DNA of 63,963 nucleotides from Candidatus Kerfeldbacteria bacterium CG_4_10_14_0_8_um_filter_42_10. GTDB taxonomy: Bacteria; Patescibacteriota; Patescibacteriia; UM-FILTER-42-10. The notes beneath the pieces were generated by a model. It saw only the letters and a list, made by a program, of their open reading frames with translations. It was not told the DNA's origin and did no database searches. Shown here piece after piece: positions 939 to 1,697 of the stretch (positions within the stretch are counted from its first letter, which is position 1; every line of letters begins with the position of its first letter). Location: positions 1 through 63,963 of the forward strand of contig PFMD01000025.1 of the NCBI GenBank assembly GCA_002784945.1, read 5' to 3'. Made by a program: the position numbers and the translations under genes.

Positions 939-1525
939 TCGGTCTCCTATCTGCCGTGGGCGTTGAAATTTGAGAAGATCTTTCTCTAGTACGAGAGGAC
1001 CGAGAAGGACGAACCACTCGTTGACGAGTTGTCCTGCCAAGGGCATTGCTCGGTAGCGACGTTCGGTTAGGATAAACGCTGAAAGCATCTAAGCGTGAAG
1101 CCGCCTTCAAGATTAGATTTCATCATTAGATTCCCGGGAGATGACCGGGTTGATAGGCTTCAGGTGTAAGTCCGGTAACGGATTTAGCCGAGAAGTACTA
1201 ATAAAATCGAGCTTAATCGTAACCACAAAGGATACTAACGCACCTTTTCTAAGGTGCGATCAAATAATAATCTAAAATAAAAATGCTCACTAAACGATCC
1301 CGCGGCTGCGGAATCGCCCTGAGTTCCGTGAGAACGGAACAAAGGGTCTTAATCTTAAAAATAACAAACAAAATGTTCTCTAAATATCGAGTATTGCTGA
1401 AACTGGTTTTAGTCTTCAGTATTCTAGCAGTAGTAATTGGAGCGGTACTTATGATTTCTCCCGCTACTATTGCTGGTAACTAGTCGCCGGAGGCCGGTTA
1501 TCCCGCGGATGCGAGATGACTCCCT

Positions 1526-1697
1526 CTGGTGATTCTAGCGAAGGGGCCACACCTGTTCCCCGCCCACCTGCCTTCCCATATTCAAGGTTTATGCTAAGAC
1601 TTATGGGCAGGAAGGCGGGCGGGCCATCCCGAACACAGCAGTTAAGCCCTTCAGCGCCGATGATACTCCAACTCGGGGGAAAGTAGGCCATTGCCAG
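1526..1697 (+). rRNA. rrf: 5S rRNA with a ~60-nt internal insertion (172 nt instead of ~117)
   Basis: CTGGTGATTCTAGCGAAGGGGCCACACCTGTTCCC ... CCATCCCGAACACAGCAGTTAAGCCCTTCAGCGCCGATGATACT...GGGGGAAAGTAGGCCATTGCCAG. Helix I pairs CUGGUGAU with AUUGCCAG. The conserved halves are separated by a hairpin at ~1559-1623. Confidence 0.85.

Follow-up and report, generated by a model that had tools for sequence, protein, structure and literature searches.

Expanded 5S rRNAs have been catalogued by Stepanov & Fox 2021, who listed 89 prokaryotic examples of 15 types, a catalogue from which CPR bacteria are absent (PMC7812874). One of their classes, defined by an insertion of at least 13 nt at core positions 34-37 of loop C, comprises long unbranched helices in the Thermoanaerobacteraceae, Halobacteroidaceae, Halanaerobiaceae and Lachnospiraceae, and includes the 172-nt 5S rRNA of Thermacetogenium phaeum (Thermoanaerobacteraceae) (PMC7812874). 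Loop C 34-37 was rated the least obstructed site on the bacterial ribosome, and expanded genes that are the sole 5S type were regarded as functional; retention of the loop C segments in the RNA was called unproven by the same authors, who considered excision possible (PMC7812874). Pseudogene remnants of 5S with insertions, lying beside normal 5S genes, are known from the Peptococcaceae and Pseudoalteromonas (PMC7812874), and a 108-nt insertion is present in the 5S rRNA of Halococcus morrhuae (Luehrsen 1981; cryo-EM PMC7530397).

In the candidate phyla radiation (CPR), Tsurumaki et al. 2024 found no insertions in 645 5S genes (PMC11270868). That survey was concerned with insertions of at least 100 bp only, and its 5S genes were detected by RF00001 with E up to 1e-4 (PMC11270868), a procedure that would therefore miss the gene described here. 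This gene lies in the window (the whole stretch of 63,963 nt that was analyzed), is 172 nt long, and is interrupted by a 65-nt hairpin that fits the loop C class of Stepanov & Fox. Loop C expansion of this kind is already known from Clostridia, and this is the first case found for CPR/Patescibacteria. An earlier note on this DNA had called a loop C expansion unusual, in a region that contacts uL5 and the central protuberance. The literature does not bear out a view of the site as unprecedented or as crowded by uL5, since it is a recurrent one in four clostridial families and was rated the least obstructed in the bacterial ribosome (PMC7812874).

The Interrupted 5S rRNA Gene

The 5S gene, its parts and the hairpin that directly follows it are as follows.

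1526-1697, + strand: 5S rRNA gene, whole, 172 nt
1526-1558, + strand: 5' part of the 5S core, with the 5' strand of helix I, loop A, the 5' strands of helices II and III and the first loop C bases (high-posterior alignment to relatives and positions 1-36 of lineage covariance model R1)
1559-1580, + strand: 5' arm of the insert, 22 nt, 17 of them pyrimidines, beginning with the GC clamp CCCGCCC (fold, composition)
1581-1601, + strand: apical part of the insert, 21 nt, 33% GC, with a small stem (UC-AA-GGU / GCU-AA-GA) and a tetraloop (fold)
1602-1623, + strand: 3' arm of the insert, 22 nt, 17 of them purines, ending in GGGCGGG (fold, composition)
1624-1697, + strand: 3' part of the 5S core, with the loop C motif CCAUCCCGAAC, the 3' strands of helices III and II, helices IV/V and the 3' strand of helix I (alignment, lineage covariance model)
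1704-1741, + strand: terminator-like hairpin and T-run, directly 3' of the 5S (fold -19.3 kcal/mol, z -5.5; T-run from the sequence)

The conserved halves ...CACCTGTTC and CCATCCCGAACACAG... are parted by the block 1559-1623, which is exactly 65 nt long rather than the approximately 60 nt of the earlier note, whose claim of an internal block in a real 5S is otherwise borne out. In alignments with 8 and then with 30 related genomes the block falls cleanly inside loop C, and ...CACCTGTTC and CCATCCCGAAC... are contiguous in every relative, the block being absent from all 30. By these alignments and the lineage covariance model the insertion is in loop C proper, and the helix III part of the location suggested earlier does not hold. 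Between which residues it lies can be given in E. coli 5S numbering by hand alignment, according to which the block is situated between the equivalents of positions 36 and 37, with a run of C residues permitting placement up to 38/39.

After in-silico removal of 1559-1623, the remaining core is 107 nt long, is 84% identical to its nearest relatives and keeps 29 of the 30 lineage consensus pairs, the missing pair belonging to the trimmed end only. This core takes the three-way junction fold with helices I-V by which a 5S rRNA is recognized (RF00001). None of the invariant columns (CCAT.C.CGAAC, GTTAAGC, GATGATAC, AGTAGG) is missing, and the conserved loop C motif CCAUCCCGAAC stays contiguous. 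The total of 172 nt had been given correctly in the earlier note; the ordinary length of about 117 nt set beside it had not, as the ordinary 5S genes of the window's family measure 107-109 nt.

The covariance model of the lineage (R1), built from the 5S genes of 30 relatives, aligns 1525-1699 from its first to its last position (98.9 bits, E 3e-28), and in this alignment 70 nt take the place of 5 positions in the hairpin loop of loop C, so that the extra nucleotides fall inside loop C. The full-length match is obtained with default filters, and with filters off only the 3' part is aligned. The general model RF00001 does not call the 5S at 1526-1697 at its gathering threshold (38 bits), and at a permissive threshold it yields 18.9 bits in the wrong register, misaligned to 1603-1699. 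This low score is caused by the 65-nt insert, the genes of relatives scoring 73-90 bits. Matches of the hairpin to microRNA precursors, which Rfam also reports at a permissive threshold, were rejected as meaningless.

The 5S starts about 300 nt past the end of the 23S and is the last gene of the rRNA operon, and the contig continues unbroken from the 23S through the 5S into 62 kb of ordinary single-copy genes. The hairpin 3' of the 5S gene is not listed by a terminator scan, though folding shows it.

Structure of the Insert

The arms of the insert, CCCGCCCACCTGCCTTCCCATA and TATGGGCAGGAAGGCGGGCGGG, pair at 19 of 22 positions in runs of 7+3+3+6 separated by three 1x1 mismatches. The hairpin with 22-nt arms and a 21-nt apical part described in the earlier note is thereby confirmed by the fold. 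Taken alone, the insert folds at -36.6 kcal/mol compared with -20.0 +/- 3.1 kcal/mol in shuffled sequences (z -5.39), and none of 200 shuffles is as good. Over the full-length (172 nt) ensemble, pairing probabilities are 0.93 or higher for 18 of the 19 arm pairs, with the core helices still formed. The predicted structure is that of an extensively self-paired, unbranched rod that extends helix III and leaves the conserved motifs uninterrupted. The G+C content of the arms is 70%, against 42-43% for the genome (window, 42.9%).

No match of the insert to an intron family was found by Rfam search, even at E up to 10. A group I/II intron was rejected on the grounds that 65 nt are too short for the catalytic core, and a bulge-helix-bulge intron because the predicted fold is devoid of 3-nt bulges flanking a 4-bp helix.

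Copy Number and Occurrence in Other Samples

There is no second 5S-like sequence in the window's own genome (83 contigs, 1.36 Mb, 98.5% complete), which encodes the ribosomal proteins uL5, uL18 and bL25, and also RNase III (rnc homologue, 239.6 bits). With no other 5S gene in the cell, the 5S of the window would have to supply the ribosome, and we infer that 1526-1697 is a functional, single-copy 5S gene of a Patescibacteria bacterium. For a gene that neighbors the 5S, the nearest relative with a name is from Candidatus Kerfeldbacteria.

The identical 172-nt 5S with its insert is present in contigs from at least six samples that were put together by differing assemblers, and these contigs comprise MEGAHIT-style, SPAdes-style and JGI assemblies. 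The assemblies are independent, because one contig has a different 23S insertion, and the recurrence of the same 5S in independent assemblies therefore excludes an assembly artifact. The insert-bearing copies of the window's species represent one population, in which all are identical and there is no variation within the insert. All of the contigs found were genomic, with no RNA-derived contigs among the matches. When a spurious 74-aa ORF was used as the search query, matches came from the same population only.

Surroundings in the rRNA Operon

Other features of the operon and its 3' flank are listed below.

1-1220, + strand: 3' end of the 23S rRNA, model positions 2542-2925 (Rfam, 246 bits, with an 864-nt insertion)
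79-938: intron-like 23S insertion of ~860 nt near model position 2604 (Rfam alignment)
224-760: LAGLIDADG ORF, 178 aa, within the 23S insertion (Pfam LAGLIDADG_1)
1996-2052, + strand: second copy of the 5S 3' end and terminator stem (1684-1733 versus 1999-2048, 84%; terminator-like site at 2024-2046)

At the same 23S site other assemblies of the same organism have different insertions, of 723 nt (contig L092, 1529-2251) or about 244 nt (contig L097, 141-386), and the window's own genome assembly breaks there, its contig C32 ending at the site. In L097, 33 differences are packed into 120 nt of the 23S just downstream of the insertion (940-1061); that L097 comes from a diverged strain was considered and rejected, as all 33 differences lie in this stretch beside the insertion site. 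The 23S on L117 (contig C32) contains further lineage-specific insertions at model positions of about 225, 283, 312 and 583, which measure about 170, 42, 29 and at least 55 nt, are AT-rich and are unrelated in sequence to the 5S hairpin. By BLAST there is no similarity between the 5S insert and the 23S insertions.

In the spacer between the 23S and 5S, a 36-codon ORF (window 1373-1483) specifies a hydrophobic peptide ending in ...LMI(S/T)PATIAGN. This peptide is conserved in three genomes of two genera (spacers L129 and L013 of genomes G005 and G004), with the DNA only about 67% identical, and the ORF possibly encodes a genuine mini-protein within the operon. Downstream of the 5S, 1761-2056 forms a structured module in which 1809-1857 resembles 1919-1967 and parts of which are conserved in G004 and in contigs L107 and L108.

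Distribution Among Relatives and Beyond

Ordinary 5S genes of 107-120 nt are present in 32 of 40 sampled relatives. No other intact 5S with a loop C insert of 40-70 nt was found among one genome each for 185,579 species, in a scan that is blind to truncated copies such as that of G005 (see below). Its 54 matches turned out to be nested 5S copies or else ordinary genes for which the upstream anchor had matched by chance. Among 241 million metagenome records, the sole matches were the same organism (L092) and a single nested 5S (L093), and no inserts of 6-36 nt were found at the loop C site in 400 genomes of the class. On contig L107, where the gene neighboring the 5S is 80% identical and the gene order is the same, the 5S is a plain 108-nt gene without the hairpin. 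Contigs with 85% and 82% homologs of the neighboring gene end before the 5S, and L109 has no 5S in reach.

Contig L108 of a close relative (Logan SRR22388270) has as its position 1 the base right after the loop C site (window 1625), and if the assembly graph branches here, alleles that carry the insert may coexist with alleles that lack it. By RF00001, no 5S is found in eight genomes (G001, G016, G021, G025, G028, G034, G039 and G040), and two of these, G034 and G040, are 100% complete and consist of 20 and 7 contigs, respectively. A BLAST search with the window's 5S against G001, G021, G034, G039 and G040 yielded nothing convincing. An interrupted or rearranged 5S that is invisible to the standard model may be hidden in some of the eight.

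The Same Hairpin in a Sister Genus

A search of relatives gave an exact match to the arm sequence in G005, a genome of the same family and another genus. Here the hairpin resides in a second 5S-like copy upstream of the normal 5S. This copy consists of the 5' part of the gene, the same hairpin at an identical site and a stretch of 22 nt from the 3' part, after which it breaks off into two small GC hairpins, and it is followed by a second leader and then by an intact 5S that lacks the insert and belongs to another sequence type. G004, which belongs to the same genus as G005 (g2), has a single plain 5S without the hairpin. We infer that the hairpin-bearing 5S of G005 is a decaying copy beside which the clean 5S serves, and hence a hairpin-bearing copy is not always the working gene.

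The hairpins of the window and G005 show no differences at 42 paired-arm positions, 21 of them in the 5' arm and the three mismatch positions included, with differences at 6 of 21 positions in the apical part, 9 of 57 in the core flanks and 30 of 46 in the leader. The contrast of the arms (0/42) with the core and apical part together (15/78) gives a Fisher p of 0.0011. The small apical stem is kept in G005, where the tetraloop differs and one U.G pair has become U.A, covariation that rests on two sequences, the copies of the window's species being identical. As judged from these comparisons, the hairpin stem is evidently under constraint, and the hairpin itself would be either older than the window's species or exchanged between lineages.

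Clamped Palindromes and Nested RNA Genes

Rickettsia has palindromic elements that have become inserted within genes, at sites where they are tolerated. In the window's genome there are nine palindromes with the clamp CCCGC[AC]C...G[GT]GCGGG, the 5S insert included, compared with 0-2 in shuffled genomes, and a reversed-motif control for this census gives five. Three of the nine clamped units enclose tRNA genes and one encloses a GIY-YIG ORF (104 aa, PF01541, 58 bits). The units on contigs C18 and C56 are cargo-less like the 5S insert, whose apical part of only 21 nt has no room for a spare gene copy or a nuclease gene. The units with tRNA genes are as follows.

C55:441-615: tRNA-Pro(UGG) between GC-clamped complementary arms
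C23:234-333: tRNA-Ala(CGC) between GC-clamped complementary arms
C6:8043-8143: tRNA-Arg(UCG) between GC-clamped complementary arms

When the units on C55 and C23 are removed in silico, their flanks are recognized as an outer tRNA, and the unit therefore sits in the anticodon loop of that outer tRNA. All three nested tRNA genes, that on C6 included, would lie within the anticodon loop of an older tRNA copy. The halves of the outer tRNA-Pro on C55 still look intact. Nowhere in the genome is an arm of the 5S insert matched better than by an arm of the tRNA-Pro unit (C55), with which it agrees at 14 of 16 positions; beyond the 7-nt clamp the match is 7 of 9, for which we estimate a chance of about 0.02. 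No second copy of the 5S insert was found in the genome by BLAST. The likeness of the arms, which is a matter of sequence and short of proof, points to a common family for the 5S hairpin and the clamped palindromes.

The same genome has about 11 small GIY-YIG genes, three of which lie between inverted repeats.

C58:25809-26129: small GIY-YIG gene exactly between 18-21-nt inverted repeats
C75:62034-62320: small GIY-YIG gene exactly between 18-21-nt inverted repeats
C75:65659-65935: small GIY-YIG gene exactly between 18-21-nt inverted repeats

The arms on C58 (CCCGCACCTTTTT...) match those around nested 5S genes of L088, another Patescibacteria genome. In such nested arrangements, found in L093 (415-700)/L059, L088, L074 and L068, a complete 5S is carried on long complementary arms within the loop C of an outer 5S, and the base of the arms is CCCCGC(C/A)C in three of these four lineages. 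The nested 5S genes belong to Candidatus Buchananbacteria and other uncultured genomes, and the outer copy of L088 looks nearly complete. The exposed-loop sites are the 5S loop C of the window, the anticodon loops on C55 and C23, and the loop C of the outer 5S in L093, L088, L074 and L068. A literature search found no description of GC-clamped palindromes around nested RNA genes of Patescibacteria.

Fate and Origin of the Hairpin

The two fates put forward in the earlier note, excision as an intervening sequence and persistence as an expansion segment, both still stand. The reading that we favor, with confidence a little above even, is that the window contains the sole functional 5S of the cell and that its loop C hairpin is probably retained and comes from a cargo-less member of the palindrome family. 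By analogy with the loop C helices of Thermacetogenium, Halobacteroides and Halanaerobium at the same sterically free site, the hairpin most likely stays in the mature 5S as an expansion segment atop the central protuberance. Retention would be roughly twice as probable as excision, given the free site, the clostridial precedents, the conserved apical structure and the presence of only one 5S gene. As for its origin, the hairpin is probably a cargo-less member of the clamped palindrome family that was tolerated in a permissive loop, because the same hairpin occurs in the sister genus and its arms are like those of the tRNA and GIY-YIG palindromes. More tentatively, and with confidence somewhat short of even, this family is proposed to be one of undescribed GC-clamped palindromic insertions that enter exposed loops, the 5S hairpin being a selfish insertion that is becoming an expansion segment. 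The usual cargo of such insertions would be a small GIY-YIG nuclease gene or an extra copy of the interrupted gene. In the window the interrupted 5S would have stayed in service, and in the sister genus the insertion would mark a copy that has been replaced and is decaying.

If the hairpin were instead an excised intervening sequence, RNase III would cut the stem and the mature 5S would consist of two pieces joined by helices I-III. RNase III is encoded (239.6 bits), a stem of ~22 bp is a plausible substrate, and a rod of this length that replaces part of a hairpin loop has the usual shape of an intervening sequence. In addition, short non-intron insertions in CPR 23S rRNA are thought to be cut out (PMC11270868), and Stepanov & Fox allow excision for the loop C class (PMC7812874). 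However, no fragmented bacterial 5S was found in the literature, three regularly spaced mismatches leave the stem with 19 pairs over 22 positions, two genera have kept the apical stem despite a varying loop, which a discarded segment would not need, and removal is not required at a sterically free site (PMC7812874). Excision is thus unlikely, although it deserves serious consideration. A different objection concerns origin, as the hairpin could have arisen locally, by fold-back duplication of neighboring 5S sequence, and then have descended vertically with loss in some relatives, unrelated to the palindromes. The 5' arm does resemble the uninterrupted site-spanning sequence GCCACACCTGTTCCCAT (score 20 versus 14.5 +/- 2.2 in shuffles, of which 33 of 1000 score at least as high), BLAST finds the insert only once in the genome, and the reversed-clamp control, with its five palindromes, is not empty. 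That similarity to the site sequence is weak (about 0.03), however, and since within one genus the hairpin is present in G005 but missing at the same gene in G004, precise loss or transfer is needed. A local origin also has to contend with the clamp and 14 of 16 arm positions being common to the tRNA-Pro palindrome, and we regard it as unlikely, slightly more so than excision.

It is far less probable that the interrupted 5S is a disabled gene, a pseudogene with the working 5S in an unassembled part of the genome. The hairpin-bearing copy of G005 is just such a truncated pseudogene adjoining a normal 5S, draft genomes are often without rRNA genes, and Rfam does not call the window's 5S, but the core helices and conserved motifs of the latter are all intact and its sequence is identical across samples. 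Moreover, the contig is unbroken from the 23S through the 5S to 62 kb of genes, so that the operon is without another 5S, and no other 5S-like sequence is present in the 83 contigs at 98.5% completeness. That the palindrome was made by the assembler can be practically dismissed. Chimeric reads can yield palindromes, but here the arms are imperfect, with three mismatches, the same sequence is present in the MEGAHIT-style, SPAdes-style and JGI contigs of different samples, and a diverged copy is found in another genus (G005).

The gene adds the candidate phyla radiation to the groups with expanded 5S rRNAs, which had been a few Clostridia, the Alteromonadales and haloarchaea. It has a practical side as well, as RF00001 at its threshold misses the gene, genomes are scored as 5S-less as a result, and the grading of genome quality is affected. 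In addition, the presence of the same hairpin in the working gene of one genus and in the discarded copy of another, together with the likeness of its arms to the palindromes that split tRNA genes, suggests a concrete path, open to testing, that could lead from mobile palindromes to expansion segments.

Comparison With Known Systems

The intervening sequences of 23S rRNA that are excised by RNase III (PMC11270868) resemble the window's insert in that a hairpin block replaces the tip of a helix and is sporadic among relatives. They are common in small genomes with a single rRNA operon, and RNase III is present, as it is in the window's genome. Such RNase III-excised sequences are known, however, for 23S (and 16S) and not for 5S, and the stem of the window's insert is short and mismatched. 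In Halococcus morrhuae, as in the window, an oversized 5S is the sole type and the insertion is a self-folding module that leaves the core undisturbed, but the insertion of this archaeon is at about 104/105, is branched and longer, and is the only one of the two for which retention has been demonstrated experimentally.

The Ssn GIY-YIG nucleases, which are associated with hairpin repeats (Chenal et al. 2025, PMC11893778), invite comparison on two counts, as the window's genome likewise has many small GIY-YIG genes and as GC-rich palindromes recur in both at specific kinds of site. The 5S hairpin is without a gene, and the link to Ssn is by domain family only. The arrangement in G005 is that of the Peptococcaceae and Pseudoalteromonas remnants, namely a truncated copy with the same insertion as an expanded 5S elsewhere and a normal 5S in the same operon, whereas the insertion-bearing copy of the window is intact and the only one.

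The closest counterparts are the clostridial loop C segments of Thermacetogenium phaeum, Halobacteroides halobius and Halanaerobium spp. (PMC7812874). They are inserted at the same site as the window's hairpin, both are long unbranched helices with internal loops that leave the conserved motifs intact, and in some strains the expanded form is the only 5S type, as in the window's genome. The window represents a different phylum and is likened to the Clostridia by site and shape. Unlike the clostridial segments, its hairpin also marks a decaying 5S in a sister genus and has arms that resemble other palindromes.
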